From Candidatus Saccharimonadota bacterium (lineage in GTDB: Bacteria > Patescibacteriota > Gracilibacteria > Absconditabacterales > Absconditicoccaceae): a stretch of 32,000 nt of DNA. The stretch is from contig JAUIDC010000001.1 of assembly GCA_030429145.1 (NCBI GenBank), forward strand, positions 420,001-452,000, given 5' to 3'. The notes below the pieces were generated by a model. That model did not search any database. It was given only the letters and a program-made list of their open reading frames with translations, and was not told the origin of the DNA. This document shows positions 4,101 to 29,654 of the stretch, piece by piece (positions within the stretch are counted from its first letter, which is position 1; every line of letters begins with the position of its first letter). Both the position numbers and the translations under genes were made by a program.

Positions 4101-5456
4101 CGATGGATGCTTCCACTGCTGGGTAGGCTCCATCGTGAATTGAGGAACTGGTGGGGTAGAATCTACAAACACTTTTGCCATGTCCTGATTTTCTTGTCCT
4201 TGTTCGTCAATGACTCTCAGTACAACGGTATAGTTACCAGGTGCGGGGAATCTTTTTTGTATAGTTTTTTGATTTTGAATAGATTCGAGAATATTTCCAT
4301 CTTCATCGTAGATAGTTCGAGAAAATGTTTTGAGGTTTGATATCACTGAGTATGATGTGCTTGCATCAAATGAGTACGTTGTTGATGTGTTTCCGCCATT
4401 GGCTGGAGACTGTTTGATCGTTGCGACAGGGTCTGATACCACAAGTTGGAAGTCTTTGGTAACGGTATTTCCTTCGTTGTCTCTCACGCTCAGCTGTACA
4501 TTGTAGAGCCCATTGTTTCCGATAGGTAGCACATATGCACTAGGCGGCGTGTTTGAAGCAGAGCGCTGAGAAAATCCGTTCTCTCATTCAACGGTCCACT
4601 CGTGCCAGAGGATCTGTCTTCCTCCGAGCGGCGTTGTTGCTGAACCATCTAGTCTGATCCCTCTCTGCGCTTCCTGTGTTCCTATTTTGGTTGGAACTTG
4701 ATCATTCATCCTTTTGCCATTTGCAAAGATGGTGATGTTCGCTGCTTGTGGAGCGACGCTAATGTCGAGGACCTGTTCGCCATCGAATATACCTTCGTCA
4801 GCATTGTTGATGCTTCTGACCGTGAGACGAACTTTGTAGTTTCCTTGTTCAGTAAAAGTATGTTTTACCACACTTCCTTTTCCGATGATTTTTTCTTCAC
4901 CATCTACGTCTCTGTAGTACCAAAAGAAATTGTTTGCTGGTATGGTAGTGTTTGAAGGATCCTGACTTTGTCTCGCATCAAAAGTCACGGTAAGAGGAGC
5001 AGAGTTAGATGACTGGTCATAGAGTGCTTCTGCTCTTGGTTGCACGGTGTATGTAGTATTAATCTCTTTGATGATAGCTTGCAGTGGATCAAAACAGTTA
5101 TTGCTGAAAAGAGAGAAATTGTTGTAGTCGAAGCTACGTGAAAGAGTCTGTGAAGTGATGAGGCACTGTTCATAGACGGTTTTAAATTCCGGCTTTTTAG
5201 GAAAGTAGTCAAAGACATACTGGAAGTTTGTATAAAGCCTACTGAAGAGGTTCGTATCGATATTGCTACCAACCTGCTTGGCTGCTTGAATCTTTACCAA
5301 GATGTCCTGTACATCATTTCGCTGTGATGCGATCTTGAAGTTTGGTCTGTATTCAACAGGGATTGCCGCTTGAACGAAGTTGACAGGTTGGAATGCCTGC
5401 AGTAGCACTAAGCTTATTCGTCCGGCAGTGATAATGTGCTTTACGCGAGATCTCAT
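1194..5456 (-). CDS. Giant membrane-anchored surface protein with PKD/Ig-like repeats and a thrombospondin-type-3-like Ca-binding repeat (1420 aa)
   Basis: Five track fragments (4584-5456, 3531-4532, 2637-3404, 2298-2510, 1371-2135) share one frame. I walked every gap codon by codon and found only TGA (4584, 3531, 2637, 2616, 2298, 2250, 2211, 1371, 1212), with no TAA/TAG before TAA 1194-1196. ATG 5454-5456 is preceded by AGAAGG. PKD-type motifs are VTFDARQSQDP, YSFDASTSYS, LTYDWSFSNGE, YEWDFGDQS and KYDFDGDGIDD. An Asp-rich repeat DGDCFVDKDIALDSNKDGSPDQDRD lies at about 2136-2210. The C-terminus has a TM helix (ILRVVGILGGGFVLLVVIFAV) followed by a tail PTPTPTPAPTPKPT. Confidence 0.85.
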
Positions 5457-5548
5457 AGAAGAACCTTCTAAAAAATAAATTTACTTTAGTATATGCATAA
5501 ATAGAGAAAACAACAAAAAGTGTCTCTATTTATAGTGGTTTTTATCAT

Positions 5549-5577
5549 AAAACAAAAAACTGTCAATGGTTTGACAG
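5549..5577 (-). terminator. Intrinsic terminator downstream of the VPETG surface-protein gene
   Basis: On the minus strand the sequence reads CTGTCAA-ACCA-TTGACAG, a perfect 7-bp stem, followed by TTTTTTGTTTT. It starts 31 nt after the TAA at 5608-5610. Confidence 0.75.
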
Positions 5578-5607
5578 CTTTTTGCCGGACTGTTAGAGAA
5601 AATAGGA

Positions 5608-6510
5608 TTATTTTGCTCCTCTGAACTTATAGACGACGTAGATAAGCATCATGAGGAAGGTACTCATAAGGATGATGTTTAATCCAGGCCCTGTCTCAGG
5701 GACTCCCTTTCCTGGAGGAGTAGAAATTTCGTCAATTTTCATATTCATAACTCTTTCTGAACCAATCGTATTTCCATTTGCATCGATGCCGATGATTCTG
5801 ATGTTGTATGAACCAACTGCGCTGACTACAAATGAGAACATTTCGTCAGAGGCGTTTGCGCTACCGAGAAGCGTGTAGTTTGTATCATTGAGATTTTTCA
5901 ATGAGAACTCGTACTTACTGACTGCGTCAGTGTTGTTCCACTTTACAGTGATGTTGTTGCCAGAGACAACGTAGGTGAAGTTTGCGTCGGCGTCACTTGG
6001 TGCGCCAAGTGTATTGTCTTGATTGTTTGACGCAGTGTTATCTGCTGTAACTCCTGGCGTAGTAAATGATTCTTCAGTCGAAAAGTCTCCAGAAATTCCA
6101 TCTTTGTTTGTTGGTTTGATGATGAAATAGTAGAGTGTTCCCGGCTTGAGATCAGTGAGTCTTAGCTCTATCATATTGTTTTCAATGTCTGAGCTTTCGA
6201 GTGTGAACTTCTCCTCAAAGAGATCCTGAGGTTCTGCGATACTAATGCTTTTTCCTTCGCTATACACAACAGAGTACTGGAGTATGTACTCACCGTTTGC
6301 TTGTACGACAGGAGCCTTGATGGTCATGCCTGTTGAGGTTCCCCCAGTGGTGACAATAATGTCAGACGGAGTGAATCCCCATGATGTAGTGCTTCCAAAA
6401 ATGGAATCTATAGAACTATCTTCAGCAGCAAGTGAAACAGAGGTAACAAGTGCGATACCAGCTGTTGCAGCGAGCATGTATCAAAGGAGCTTTTTCGACC
6501 ATGTCTGCAT
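5608..6510 (-). CDS. Sortase-substrate surface protein with FN3/Ig-like modules and a VPETG sorting signal (300 aa)
   Basis: ATG 6508-6510 extends track ORF 5608-6477 upstream through TGA 6481-6483. This gives the signal peptide MQTWSKKLLGYMLAATAGIALVTSVSLAAE. An FN3-like signature is TLYYFIIKPTNKDGISGDFSTEESFTT. The C-terminus is VPETG (5689-5703), then the hydrophobic stretch LNIILMSTFLMMLIYVVY, then the basic tail KFRGAK. The stop is TAA 5608-5610. Confidence 0.8.
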
Positions 6511-18447: not shown

Positions 18448-18523
18448 GCCGCAGTAGCTCAGCTGGTAGAGCGCACCCATGGTAAGGGTGAGGCCGCGGG
18501 TTCAATCCCCGTCTGTGGCTCCA
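18448..18523 (+). tRNA. tRNA-Thr (anticodon GGU), with encoded CCA
   Basis: The cloverleaf was folded by hand. Acceptor GCCGCAG/CTGTGGC (one G-U pair). D arm GCTC-AGCTGGTA-GAGC. Anticodon arm CACCC-ATGGTAA-GGGTG. T arm GCGGG-TTCAATC-CCCGT. Discriminator T followed by CCA. Confidence 0.9.
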
Positions 18524-22902: not shown

Positions 22903-22979
22903 GCGGAATTAGCTCAATTGGCTAGAGCGTGTCCTTGCCAAGGACAAGGTTGCGAGTTCGAGCCTCGTATTCCGCTCCA
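22903..22979 (+). tRNA. tRNA-Gly (anticodon GCC), with encoded CCA
   Basis: Acceptor GCGGAAT/ATTCCGC. D arm GCTC-AATTGGCTA-GAGC. Anticodon arm TGTCC-TTGCCAA-GGACA. T arm GCGAG-TTCGAGC-CTCGT. Discriminator T followed by CCA. This is the ordinary GGY reader, not the UCA tRNA needed to decode UGA. Confidence 0.9.
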
Positions 22980-27138: not shown

Positions 27139-29022
27139 CTATAAACTTCTCTCAGTGTACTCTTTTACTCTCTCTGCAATGAACTCGTTTGCTGAAAGAG
27201 TGGCTTGCTCTTTTGTTTTGTAGACACGAATAGAAACAGTCTTGTCGTTTACTTCTTTTTCTCCGATAATGGCGATGTAAGGTATCTTATCGAGCTCTGC
27301 ATTACGAATTTTTTTGCTAAAGCTGTCATCGCTTGTGTCGACTTTTGCTCTGAGATTGTTCTTTGCACACTCTTCTTGGAGCTCCTGGCAGTAGTCGGTG
27401 AACTTTTCTGCAACTGGTACGAACATGATTTGTGTTGGAGCGAGCCAGAGCGGGAATACTCCTGCAAAGTGTTCTATCATGACACCCATAAACCTTTCGA
27501 GTGATCCTGAGATAGCACGATGTATCACAACAGGTCTTTCTCTTTCGTTATTTTCATTGATAAATGCGAGGTCGAATCTTTCGGGAAGATTGAAATCACA
27601 CTGGATAGTCGCTAGTTGCCACTCACGACCGATAGCATCTTTGAACATAAAGTCGAGTTTGGGACCATAGAATGCAGCTTCATCAACTCCCACTTTGTAT
27701 GGAAGGTCATATTTTTCAGCAGCATCTTTGAGCGCTGTTTCTGCCTTTTCCCATACTTCATCGCTTCCGAGATATTTTCCTTCAGGGCCTCTGATAGAGA
27801 GTCTTACCCAGTAGCCATCAATCATCCCCATAGTAGTATAGAACTCTTTGATGATGCTTGCTACTGTTCCTACCTCCTGTGATATCTGGCTTACACGACA
27901 GAAGAGATGACCATCGTCTTGTGTGATAGCTCTTACGCGAGTAAGTCATGAAAGTTGTCCTGTTTTTTCATCACGATAGACAGTTGCAGGTTCGAAGTAT
28001 CTTACTGGCATGTCACGATATGAGAAAAGATTGTCAGAGAATATCTGCATGTGGTGAGGACAGTTCATCGGTTTCATGAAGAAGTCATCATCGCTTCCTT
28101 TTACTCTAAAGAGCTCGTCACCGAACTTGTCTGCATGGCCTGATGTCTTATAGAGGTCTTCTTTTGCAAGGTGGGGAGTTCGGACTCTGCTATATCCCTT
28201 ATTTTTATGTAACTCCCAAAGATATTCTTCAATCTCGCGTCTGATGATCATACCATTTGGCTGGAGAAGCGGTAGTCCAGCTCCAACAAGAGGAGAGATA
28301 GAAAAGAGCTTCATCTTTTGACCGATTACTCTGTGGTCTCTTTTTCTTGCTTCTTCCAGCATCTCTTGATGTTTTTTTAGTTCATCTTTCGACGCAAAAG
28401 CAAGCCCGTAGATACGAGTCATCATAGGATTGCCTTCTTTTGCTTGCCAGTATGCACCAGCAACTGTATCTAGTACAAACGAACCTGGGTCAATCTCTTT
28501 GGTTGTCTCTACGTGAGGACCTTCACAAAGGTCGAGAAATGTCACAAATTGATCATCATTGATAGCTCCTTGTTTTGCAAAGTAGTCAGAAATGTCTTGG
28601 TAGATATTCATGTATTCTTCTCTTGCGTAGCTGAGTACTTTAGGAGCTGCGGCAGCAGGGATTACATTGAGATAGAAGGTGTAGTCAGTGATGCCTTTGT
28701 CGGCAAACTTTGTTATAAGCTCTTTTTTGAAACGAGAAGCATCGCCATAGAAGTTCATGATTTTTTCAGCTTCAGCTTTGTCTTTTGCCTTGTAGAAAAT
28801 GAAAGACTGGTTTTGTTTCACAAGTCATTGGATAGTCTTTGTGAGGTCTTTGAGGTTGTCCTCACCGAACTCGATTCATTCGCTGAGTAGTACATCATAG
28901 TAAAATCAGTCTTCGACCGCAGGTCATGTTCCGAGGGCAACATGTGGGTCGATAGTTTGTTGTACCGCCTGCGCAAGGAGATGTGCGAGGGAGTGGCGGG
29001 GTTTAAGTATTTCAAGTTCCAT
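27139..29022 (-). CDS. thrS: Threonyl-tRNA synthetase (627 aa) lacking the N-terminal TGS domain
   Basis: Track ORFs 27139-27831 and 27946-28821 are in the same frame. An N-terminal extension runs through TGA 28825, 28876, 28906 and 28924 to ATG 29020-29022, and the gene ends in TAG 27139-27141. Family motifs are [12 protein letters not shown] and DLCEGPHV (editing domain), MNCPHHMQIF, GQLS-G(TGA 27946)-LTRVRAITQDDGHLFC, and RPVVIHRAISGS. The protein starts at the position equivalent to E. coli residue ~70. Confidence 0.95.
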
Positions 29023-29044
29023 GGTTACTATTCGTGATAAATGA

Positions 29045-29078
29045 TAAAGAAAAACCTCATACCGCGATGGCAAGAGGT
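29045..29078 (-). terminator. Leader (attenuator) terminator between the thrS promoter and the thrS start codon
   Basis: The minus-strand RNA reads ACCUCUUGCC (29078-29069), AUCGC, GGUAUGAGGU (29063-29054), which gives 9 of 10 pairs, followed by UUUUCUUUAUC. It ends about 22 nt before the thrS ATG. Confidence 0.65.
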
Positions 29079-29109
29079 CTTTTGCTAGCAATGAGAAACT
29101 CTTACCAAA

Positions 29110-29157
29110 CTATTGGGTTGACGTAGTCGTTGTGGTAAGCGTAGGCTGTCGGAGCAT
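29110..29157 (-). CDS. Candidate thrS leader peptide MLRQPTLTTTTTSTQ (15 aa, 7 Thr)
   Basis: The minus strand reads ATG CTC CGA CAG CCT ACG CTT ACC ACA ACG ACT ACG TCA ACC CAA TAG. It contains five consecutive Thr codons that use all four ACN codons. The ORF overlaps attenuator segment 1 (CUUACCA, 29139-29133). Its stop codon lies 2 nt before segment 2 (UGGUAAGAG, 29107-29099). Confidence 0.6.
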   Translation of the reverse strand: MLRQPTLTTTTTSTQ

Positions 29158-29190
29158 TGGTTGGCTAGCGAATGGATAAATATTAGCTCA

Positions 29191-29219
29191 TTTATAGGGA
29201 AGTGTCGTTGAGGTTGCAA
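29191..29219 (-). promoter_or_regulatory. Candidate promoter of the thrS leader transcript
   Basis: On the minus strand: TTGCAA (29219-29214), a 17-nt spacer, then TATAAA (29196-29191). This predicts a leader of about 160 nt before the thrS ATG. Confidence 0.5.
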
Positions 29220-29300
29220 CAGTTTTTTTACTCTGTTTCTGCATTGAAAAAGAAGAAAGAAACACTAGATTTACGGTAGTTTACTATTGATGCGATAGAA

Positions 29301-29654
29301 ATGGCGAAACTGCTTGCTACAAGTACGCTTGGTATAGATTGCGGAGACAATGCACAGAATTTGGCCAATGGTCAATGTTCTTTCAATATCTATGAAACGG
29401 TTGGTATCAGAAAAGATCAGCCTGATACGGAGGTGGGAACTTTCGTGCAAGACGCGTTTCTTGCGGCGACATTTTTTATCGGTACGGTAGTGGCTGTTGC
29501 GCTGATCTACTCAGGCATCATGTATATCATGGCGAAGGATGACAGCGCTGCTAGCAAGGCGAAAAATGGTATCAAATGGTCGCTTATTGGTCTTGCGCTT
29601 GTGATGTTCAGTTACACGATTGTGAGACTCGTGCAGTACATCGCTAAGGGATAA
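29301..29654 (+). CDS. Small two-TM protein resembling the CPR-type TrbC/VirB2-like 'T4SS pilin' family
   Basis: 117 codons ending in TAA. The C-terminal two-thirds (FLAATFFIGTVVAVALIYSGIMYIMAKDDSAASKAKNGIKWSLIGLALVMFSYTIVRLV) has the hallmark layout of hydrophobic helix, short charged loop with an AKxxI motif, then second helix. An upstream in-frame TAG at 29277 fixes the start. Confidence 0.6.
   Translation: MAKLLATSTLGIDCGDNAQNLANGQCSFNIYETVGIRKDQPDTEVGTFVQDAFLAATFFIGTVVAVALIYSGIMYIMAKDDSAASKAKNGIKWSLIGLALVMFSYTIVRLVQYIAKG

Follow-up and report, generated by a model that had tools for sequence, protein, structure and literature searches.

A likely threonine-sensing leader-peptide attenuator upstream of thrS in Absconditabacteria and Gracilibacteria

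The stretch examined here (the window) comprises 32,000 nucleotides from a Candidatus Saccharimonadota bacterium (contig JAUIDC010000001.1, positions 420,001 to 452,000 of the forward strand), and all coordinates below are those of the window. In it, the gene thrS is preceded on the minus strand by a short, threonine-rich open reading frame (ORF) and by RNA segments that can pair in alternative ways, which raises the question of whether thrS transcription is tied to the supply of charged tRNA-Thr. Based on the analysis presented here, we consider it likely that it is, by way of a leader-peptide (ribosome-mediated) transcription attenuator. All parts of such an element were observed in the expected order and spacing, and so were their conservation and two helices that exclude each other.

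The candidate regulated gene, thrS (27139-29022, minus strand), encodes a threonine--tRNA ligase (ThrRS) of 627 aa, with in-frame UGA read as Gly. From the start codon, ATG at 29022, the 627-codon frame is broken by TGA and is full-length under translation table 25. The product scored 607 bits against TIGR00418 (cut-off 384) and also matched tRNA-synt_2b, HGTP_anticodon and tRNA_SAD.

The leader ORF, MLRQPTLTTTTTSTQ followed by a UAG stop, lies upstream at 29110-29157 (minus strand), with its ATG at 29157 and its TAG at 29112-29110. Seven of its 15 codons specify Thr (ACG ACC ACA ACG ACU ACG ACC), five of them consecutively; this run, ACC ACA ACG ACU ACG (29122-29136, minus strand), was read directly from the sequence and is the proposed stalling site, and in relatives it varies mostly at codon position 3. 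Dinucleotide-preserving shuffles were made of the 278-nt intergenic region, and none of 5000 contained an ATG ORF with at least six Thr in eight residues, the density seen in the window, while an ORF with at least six of eight residues of any one amino acid arose once in 5000. The 15-codon leader with seven Thr codons, as described in an earlier sequence-only reading of this DNA, is confirmed, and the shuffles exclude chance as its origin.

Four pairing segments could be placed in and behind this ORF on the minus strand. Segment 1, CUUACCA (29133-29139), forms 7 bp with UGGUAAG (29107-29101), the beginning of segment 2, and does so in the minimum-free-energy fold. Segment 2, UGGUAAGAG (29099-29107), begins 5 nt past the stop codon's first base and provides the 5' strand of the antiterminator; the same stretch, also written GGUAAGAG, is the partner of segment 3. 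Segment 3, ACCUCUUGCCA (29068-29078), serves both as the 3' strand of the antiterminator and as the 5' arm of the terminator. The antiterminator (2:3) joins UGGUAAGAG (29107-29099) to CUCUUGCCA (29076-29068) by 9 bp, including one G-U. In the competing helix (3:4), ACCUCUUGCC (29078-29069) pairs with segment 4, GGUAUGAGGU (29054-29063), the 3' arm of the terminator, with one U-U mismatch, and is followed by UUUUCUUUAUC. This helix belongs to a longer stem, AAAGACCUC-U-UGCC / GGUA-U-GAGGUUUUU, which is followed by UUUUUCUUUAUC; the whole intrinsic terminator (29043-29082) consists of an A-tract, a 13-bp interrupted stem, the loop AUCGC and the U-tract UUUUUCUUUAUC. All four segments stand where the sequence-only reading had put them and pair as it had described. 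The palindrome GCUAGC is also found twice on this strand (29164-29169 and 29084-29089), and its copies pair in the minimum-free-energy fold, enclosing the entire leader ORF and segment 2.

The behaviour of these helices was followed by folding with and without a ribosome. The unconstrained minimum-free-energy fold of 29190-29020, with no ribosome present, consists of the 1:2 hairpin and the 3:4 terminator. With the ribosomal A-site on Thr codon 8, 10 or 12 and a transcript lacking segment 4, folding yields the 2:3 hairpin (-13.0 kcal/mol). Once the ribosome stands at the stop codon, there is no 2:3 hairpin (-3.0 kcal/mol) and the terminator forms. The constrained folds, which had been suggested as a check on the attenuation model, behave as that model predicts: a ribosome at the stop codon masks segment 2, and one on the Thr codons leaves it free. 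Clustered cognate codons in an ORF are found in both the window and the family, an intrinsic terminator lies between the leader ORF and the gene, and the antiterminator excludes the terminator by taking up its 5' arm.

From this arrangement we infer ribosome stalling, coupling of transcription to translation and the regulatory outcome as follows. Transcription would start ~27 nt 5' of the leader ORF, and a ribosome would translate the leader while RNA polymerase proceeds. When Thr-tRNA(Thr) is plentiful, the ribosome would arrive at the UAG, where its footprint would cover segment 2; with segment 2 masked, the 3:4 terminator and its U-tract would form, and transcription would end ~21 nt before thrS. 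When Thr-tRNA(Thr) is scarce, the ribosome would stall in the Thr run, 10-24 nt 5' of the stop codon, leaving segment 2 exposed to pair with segment 3 while segment 4 has yet to be transcribed. Formation of 2:3 would block the terminator, and polymerase would read into thrS. If the leader were not translated at all, segment 1, itself made of Thr-codon sequence, could hold segment 2, again favouring termination.

For a comparison across relatives, species representatives of GTDB were scanned with the ThrRS protein, which gave 80 loci at 54-75% identity (numbered with the prefix L), all from Absconditabacteria (SR1), Gracilibacteria and neighbouring Candidate Phyla Radiation (CPR) lineages. A metagenome scan added 80 further thrS loci; no ThrRS above 66% identity was found in it, and the best relative stays L001, at 75%. 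Among the first 78 loci, ~30 have a Thr run in a short ORF that opens with ATG within 350 nt 5' of thrS and ends 70-115 nt before the gene. The leader peptides include MKQARQLTTTTTTGTTP (L001), MQQLTTTTSTTTD (L009, SR1 oral taxon HOT-345), MSYSTTTTTTTTTD (L018), MKHIHSTTTTTTTTTIV (L022) and MVAQLVTTTTNLTSS (L042). The metagenome loci contributed 27 additional Thr-run leaders. With looser ORF criteria, a Thr-run ORF and a terminator stand before thrS in at least 54 of ~155 loci, representing 39 distinct peptides, and leader-bearing loci occur in both Absconditabacteria/SR1 and Gracilibacteria. The Thr-rich ORF is therefore conserved 5' of thrS in relatives, in the same order and spacing as in the window.

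Conservation of the terminator was then assessed. Behind 33 of 35 leaders, a single hairpin begins 20-50 nt past the leader stop and leads into four or more consecutive U, and in most loci 15-60 nt separate the end of the hairpin from the start of thrS. Two alignments were employed: A1, a MAFFT alignment of 19 diverse members, and A2, a 51-row model alignment which, because it was fitted to the terminator only, is unbiased towards the antiterminator. In A1, 79% of cells form the 13 terminator pairs, a share that drops to 44-62% once the partner column is slid; in A2, the figures are 87% against 44-61%, and 45 cells have changed on both sides, compared with 14 ± 3 in shuffles.

The antiterminator was examined locus by locus, by taking the best duplex between the 5' arm of the terminator and the stretch that runs from 12 nt before the stop codon to the terminator. 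Over 33 loci, the best 2:3 duplex had a mean z of -2.4 relative to shuffles, with z below -2 in 61% of loci, and the start of segment 2 mostly lay no more than 7 nt from the stop codon's first base (range -12 to +11). In A1, 83% of cells form the 12 antiterminator pairs (33-64% slid), and in A2, 84% do so (29-60% slid). Changes on both sides affect 24 antiterminator cells in A2, compared with 11.6 ± 3.8 in shuffles, a count reached by 0 of 500 shuffles; pair 28:68, for instance, is GC in 21 rows, AU in 12 and GU in 4, and pair 25:70 is CG in 15, UG in 10 and UA in 6. Compensatory changes, named beforehand as a check, are thus seen in both 2:3 and 3:4. Segments 2 and 4 are near-copies of each other (consensus GGYAGGAGUUU), each complementary to segment 3 (AAACUCCURCC). 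A covariance model built from A1 (R1) was searched against 870 kb of collected locus sequence; it matched the window at 29048-29124 with 61.8 bits (E = 1.2e-8), and all its matches with E < 1e-3 lie 5' of thrS, on the thrS strand.

These data bear on two other explanations. One is a chance coincidence of ORF and pairings in an intergenic region rich in A and C: helices as short as 7-10 bp turn up readily, and the fold of the whole leader reaches a z of only -1.9 against shuffles. Set against the failure of 5000 shuffles to yield such a Thr ORF and the recurrence of the arrangement with so many different peptides, it has next to no probability left, and the conservation data refute it. The other explanation invokes Rho, translation-dependent polarity or control at the level of translation, so that the switch between terminator and antiterminator would not be decisive. 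It would be in keeping with the clear conservation of the leader ORF, but we regard it as quite unlikely, since 33 of 35 leaders keep the canonical hairpin and U-tract, the alternative 2:3 pairing is conserved, and the thrS start is not occluded by a hairpin that ends 15-60 nt before it in most loci.

The leader's specificity for an amino acid was tested by counting ATG ORFs of 8-30 codons with at least five of eight identical residues in the zone 40-220 nt 5' of thrS. Thr ORFs of this kind were present at 20 of 76 loci, Leu ORFs at one and ORFs of every other amino acid at none. The remaining 924 kb of these loci, read on both strands, held 7 such Thr ORFs, which corresponds to a ~190-fold enrichment 5' of thrS. 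All four Thr codons are used in the leaders (ACA 75, ACU 68, ACC 61, ACG 41), and across ten distinct 13-codon leaders variation is concentrated at codon position 3, where the entropy summed over columns reaches 8.8, against 2.2 at position 1 and 5.1 at position 2. In L038, L053 and L095, an in-frame TGA stands 5' of the Thr run, and translation can get as far as the Thr codons there only where UGA counts as a sense codon (code 25); thrS of these genomes itself reads UGA as sense. The leader of the window contains no UGA codon. The window contains a tRNA-Thr(GGU) gene (18448-18523, plus strand), whose tRNA would read the leader's ACC and ACU codons, as well as a tRNA-Gly(GCC) gene (22903-22979, plus strand).

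The coding signature is of particular relevance to a further explanation, namely an RNA sensor that binds tRNA-Thr in the manner of a T-box or ThrRS in the manner of the E. coli operator, with the ACN repeats acting as RNA motifs. Control of thrS by such sensors is established in Bacillus and E. coli, and segment sequences such as GGUAGGAG are conserved. We nevertheless judge it very unlikely here: the AC-N pattern has a period of three with free third positions and always lies in an AUG-to-stop frame, the loop sequences are not conserved among relatives, and the leader is too short for a Stem I and an antiterminator bulge. Searches of Rfam point the same way. At gathering score, Rfam 15 returned two tRNAs and nothing else from the whole window, and no family matched any of 20 homologous leader-bearing loci. 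At E values up to 10, neither a T-box nor the enterobacterial Thr_leader (RF00506) was found in 28900-29400. The T-box riboswitch (RF00230), with no match in the window or the 20 loci, and Thr_leader were accordingly set aside as assignments, and so was every other curated family. The trpB ncRNA motif (RF04312), the best match on the leader, reached 22.9 bits (E = 0.74) against a threshold of 59 and reflects a generic stem and terminator.

Several observations weigh against attenuation and have to be set beside this evidence. Taken on its own, the terminator (-15.1 kcal/mol) exceeds the antiterminator (-12.2 kcal/mol) in stability, and at equilibrium it would prevail; antitermination would therefore have to be kinetic, as is usual in classical attenuators. 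The element is absent from about two thirds of the thrS loci sampled, among them the close relatives L002 and L003, where thrS lies 3' of a co-directional gene, and most of the more remote CPR loci with a thrS free of in-frame TGA. Several Gracilibacteria leaders carry just 3-4 scattered Thr codons. Leader translation is predicted, and there is no Shine-Dalgarno sequence before either the leader or thrS. Finally, the 1:2 helix has weak support across the family. The best 1:2 duplex has a mean z of -0.5 over the family, no better than shuffles, and a 5-bp hairpin whose loop holds the stop codon (ACC..GGU core) pairs in 65% of cells, marginally above the slid controls, which reach 51% at most; this stop-loop hairpin is invariant in the oral SR1 clade. 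In that clade, the Thr codons can form a strong helix of 15-16 bp with the sequence just 3' of GGCAAGG, and RNAalifold, applied to the clade for 1:2, found only an invariant CCGA/UCGG stem. In the window, the 7 bp of the 1:2 helix are part of the minimum-free-energy fold. We regard the helix as plausible, and the stop-codon placement of the putative segment 2 is the better conserved feature.

The greater stability of the terminator would also suit a constitutive leaky terminator or a 5' stabilising stem, accompanied by a Thr-rich peptide with its own function or with no regulatory effect, and the conserved N-terminal leader residues (M-x-Q-L / MVAQL) could be taken as a sign of such a peptide. 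This arrangement leaves unexplained why it is always the downstream synthetase's own amino acid that is enriched, why a segment at the stop codon is complementary to the terminator's 5' arm and shows compensatory changes, and why peptide length and non-Thr residues vary freely among relatives; we therefore consider it unlikely. Attenuation of thrS in response to Thr, as the sequence-only reading had predicted, is better supported, by the recurrence of ORF, terminator and 2:3 pairing, by the synonymous exchange of Thr codons and by the compensatory changes.

The missing Shine-Dalgarno sequence calls for a closer look. Among window ORFs of at least 90 codons, 2 of 30 are preceded by a Shine-Dalgarno-like 4-mer, so its absence at the leader is uninformative, and translation initiation in the source genome seems to proceed largely without Shine-Dalgarno pairing. 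The motif CCAACCA (29158-29164, minus strand) lies directly 5' of the leader AUG, in the place of a Shine-Dalgarno sequence, and recurs in relatives: CCAACC(A) also precedes the leader ATG in L004, L005, L034, L039, L056, L067, L069 and L076. It may be a non-Shine-Dalgarno initiation signal or, alternatively, a pairing partner of the UUGG of segment 2. CCAACC(A) was not seen 5' of ordinary genes of the window.

With respect to the start of the transcript, the promoter proposed for the leader, TTGCAA-17-TATAAA, is present on the minus strand, the -35-like hexamer TTGCAA at 29214-29219 (read directly) and, after a 17-nt spacer, the -10-like hexamer TATAAA at 29191-29196. The end of the -10 hexamer is 33 nt from the leader ATG, and homologous loci mostly have a sigma-70-like pair whose -10 ends 24-34 nt 5' of the leader ATG. 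A consensus promoter/terminator scanner listed neither this promoter nor the thrS-leader terminator, but its rules are strict and the result is uninformative here: the promoter was missed because TATAAA lacks the required final T (position 6 is A), and the terminator because of the internal mismatch in its stem. The upstream neighbour, a type IV secretion system (T4SS) pilin (PF18895; 29301-29654, plus strand), is divergent from the thrS leader, and the hairpin in the leader is for this reason not the terminator of another gene. The pilin promoter and the thrS-leader promoter both lie within a common 140-nt region (29160-29300).

At eight loci (L014, L020, L021, L038, L050, L051, L065 and L128), the leader and attenuator lie 650-1760 nt 5' of thrS, with one to three small unrelated genes in between. 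Judged by eye from their translations, the intervening genes look like four-helix-bundle, HD-domain, RAYT-like transposase, Doc/Fic and KilA-N genes. These genes point to a hotspot of insertion between the attenuator and thrS, the cargo of which would fall under Thr-starvation control.

To look beyond thrS, a generic scan for single-amino-acid-rich ORFs followed by a terminator was carried out over all collected sequence, and returned 44 Thr leaders and 25 others. Of the 25 non-Thr candidates, the only biologically sensible one was a Leu leader 5' of a leuA-like gene in L068, a metagenome-assembled genome of Gracilibacteria. There, a Leu run in the short ORF MHNFSHISLALLLLLGFSERLL precedes an in-frame UGA (element on the minus strand, at plus-strand coordinates 6323-6391 of that locus), and a hairpin and U-tract come after it, the U-tract ending 27 nt before the downstream gene (5030-6256, minus strand), which is HMGL-like and of the 2-isopropylmalate-synthase family. 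The element looks like a classical Leu leader attenuator, and the lineage therefore appears to use leader-peptide attenuation elsewhere. In the window, gltX has a 37-nt upstream spacer and no leader.

It was considered whether the thrS leader might be the first example to come to light of a general system by which UGA-recoded CPR bacteria sense their amino acid supply, in which several synthetase and amino acid genes would stand under cognate leader peptides. The Thr leaders of at least 54 thrS loci, the single Leu leader 5' of a leuA-like gene, the leaders with in-frame UGA and the Doc toxin, KilA-N, RAYT-like and HD-domain genes found behind the attenuator all point in this direction, and no T-box match was found in the CPR sequence examined here. 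We offer this extension tentatively, as a possibility that is rather less probable than its opposite.

UGA-recoded CPR bacteria are reported to depend on hosts for amino acids. If confirmed, the element would give Absconditabacteria and Gracilibacteria a defined cis-regulatory mechanism, imply that transcription and translation are coupled in them, and mean that host-dependent cells monitor the charging of tRNA-Thr and adjust ThrRS to it. It would also provide a natural starvation-responsive switch of ~140 nt, a possible expression tool in these organisms. In a 2024 perspective, the mechanisms of growth on hosts and of cell-cycle regulation in Patescibacteria were described as "virtually unknown" (PMC11665869).

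Leader peptides 5' of synthetase genes have been put forward in other bacteria. In Streptomyces, leader attenuation was predicted for trpS and leuS (PMC1262725), and in Bacillus, His leaders were predicted for hisS paralogues (PMC2965389). RNA-seq of S. lividans led to proposals of leader peptides 5' of alaS, leuS, trpS and thrS, the last of these (also named thrL) having two Thr codons only, a leaderless start and no clear U-tract terminator (PMC8079986). The view that the mechanism had gone undescribed consequently does not hold for thrS; for CPR bacteria, a literature search found no description of this element or of any other leader-peptide attenuator. Like the element described here, the Streptomyces and Bacillus leaders are cognate-codon ORFs before synthetase genes, found by comparative genomics or RNA-seq. 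The S. lividans leader differs in belonging to another phylum with the standard genetic code, whereas the candidate element has long Thr runs and canonical terminators. The predicted thrS element is a new, sequence-unrelated family of a known mechanistic class, to which the pheST, thr and his leaders belong and which had not been documented convincingly in this lineage or on thrS.

One close, experimentally proven parallel is the pheST attenuator of E. coli, with its pheM leader peptide (Rfam Phe_leader). Both have a short ORF with a run of cognate codons before a synthetase gene or operon and alternative antiterminator and terminator hairpins, and in both a stalled ribosome leads to read-through, which here is predicted; pheST differs in its Phe codons, its proteobacterial host and its two-gene operon, and has no sequence or Rfam similarity to the thrS element. 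The enterobacterial thrL (RF00506) shares the Thr-codon-rich leader peptide and the classical four-segment attenuator, but it controls the biosynthetic thrABC, not a synthetase, and also carries Ile codons; judged by their sequences, the two are analogous, not homologous.

On thrS itself, Bacillus employs a T-box riboswitch that binds uncharged tRNA directly. As predicted here, low charging of tRNA-Thr leads there to antitermination and to more ThrRS, but the sensor is the RNA, whereas in the element described here it would be the translating ribosome. In E. coli, ThrRS binds a mimic of the tRNA anticodon arm beside the thrS ribosome-binding site and blocks translation; this too is feedback on thrS through its 5' leader, but the operator involves neither a leader ORF nor a terminator. 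The same end is thus reached by T-boxes in Firmicutes and by a protein-binding operator in E. coli, and the leader-peptide attenuator of Absconditabacteria and Gracilibacteria would, if confirmed, be a third, independent solution to the feedback control of thrS.

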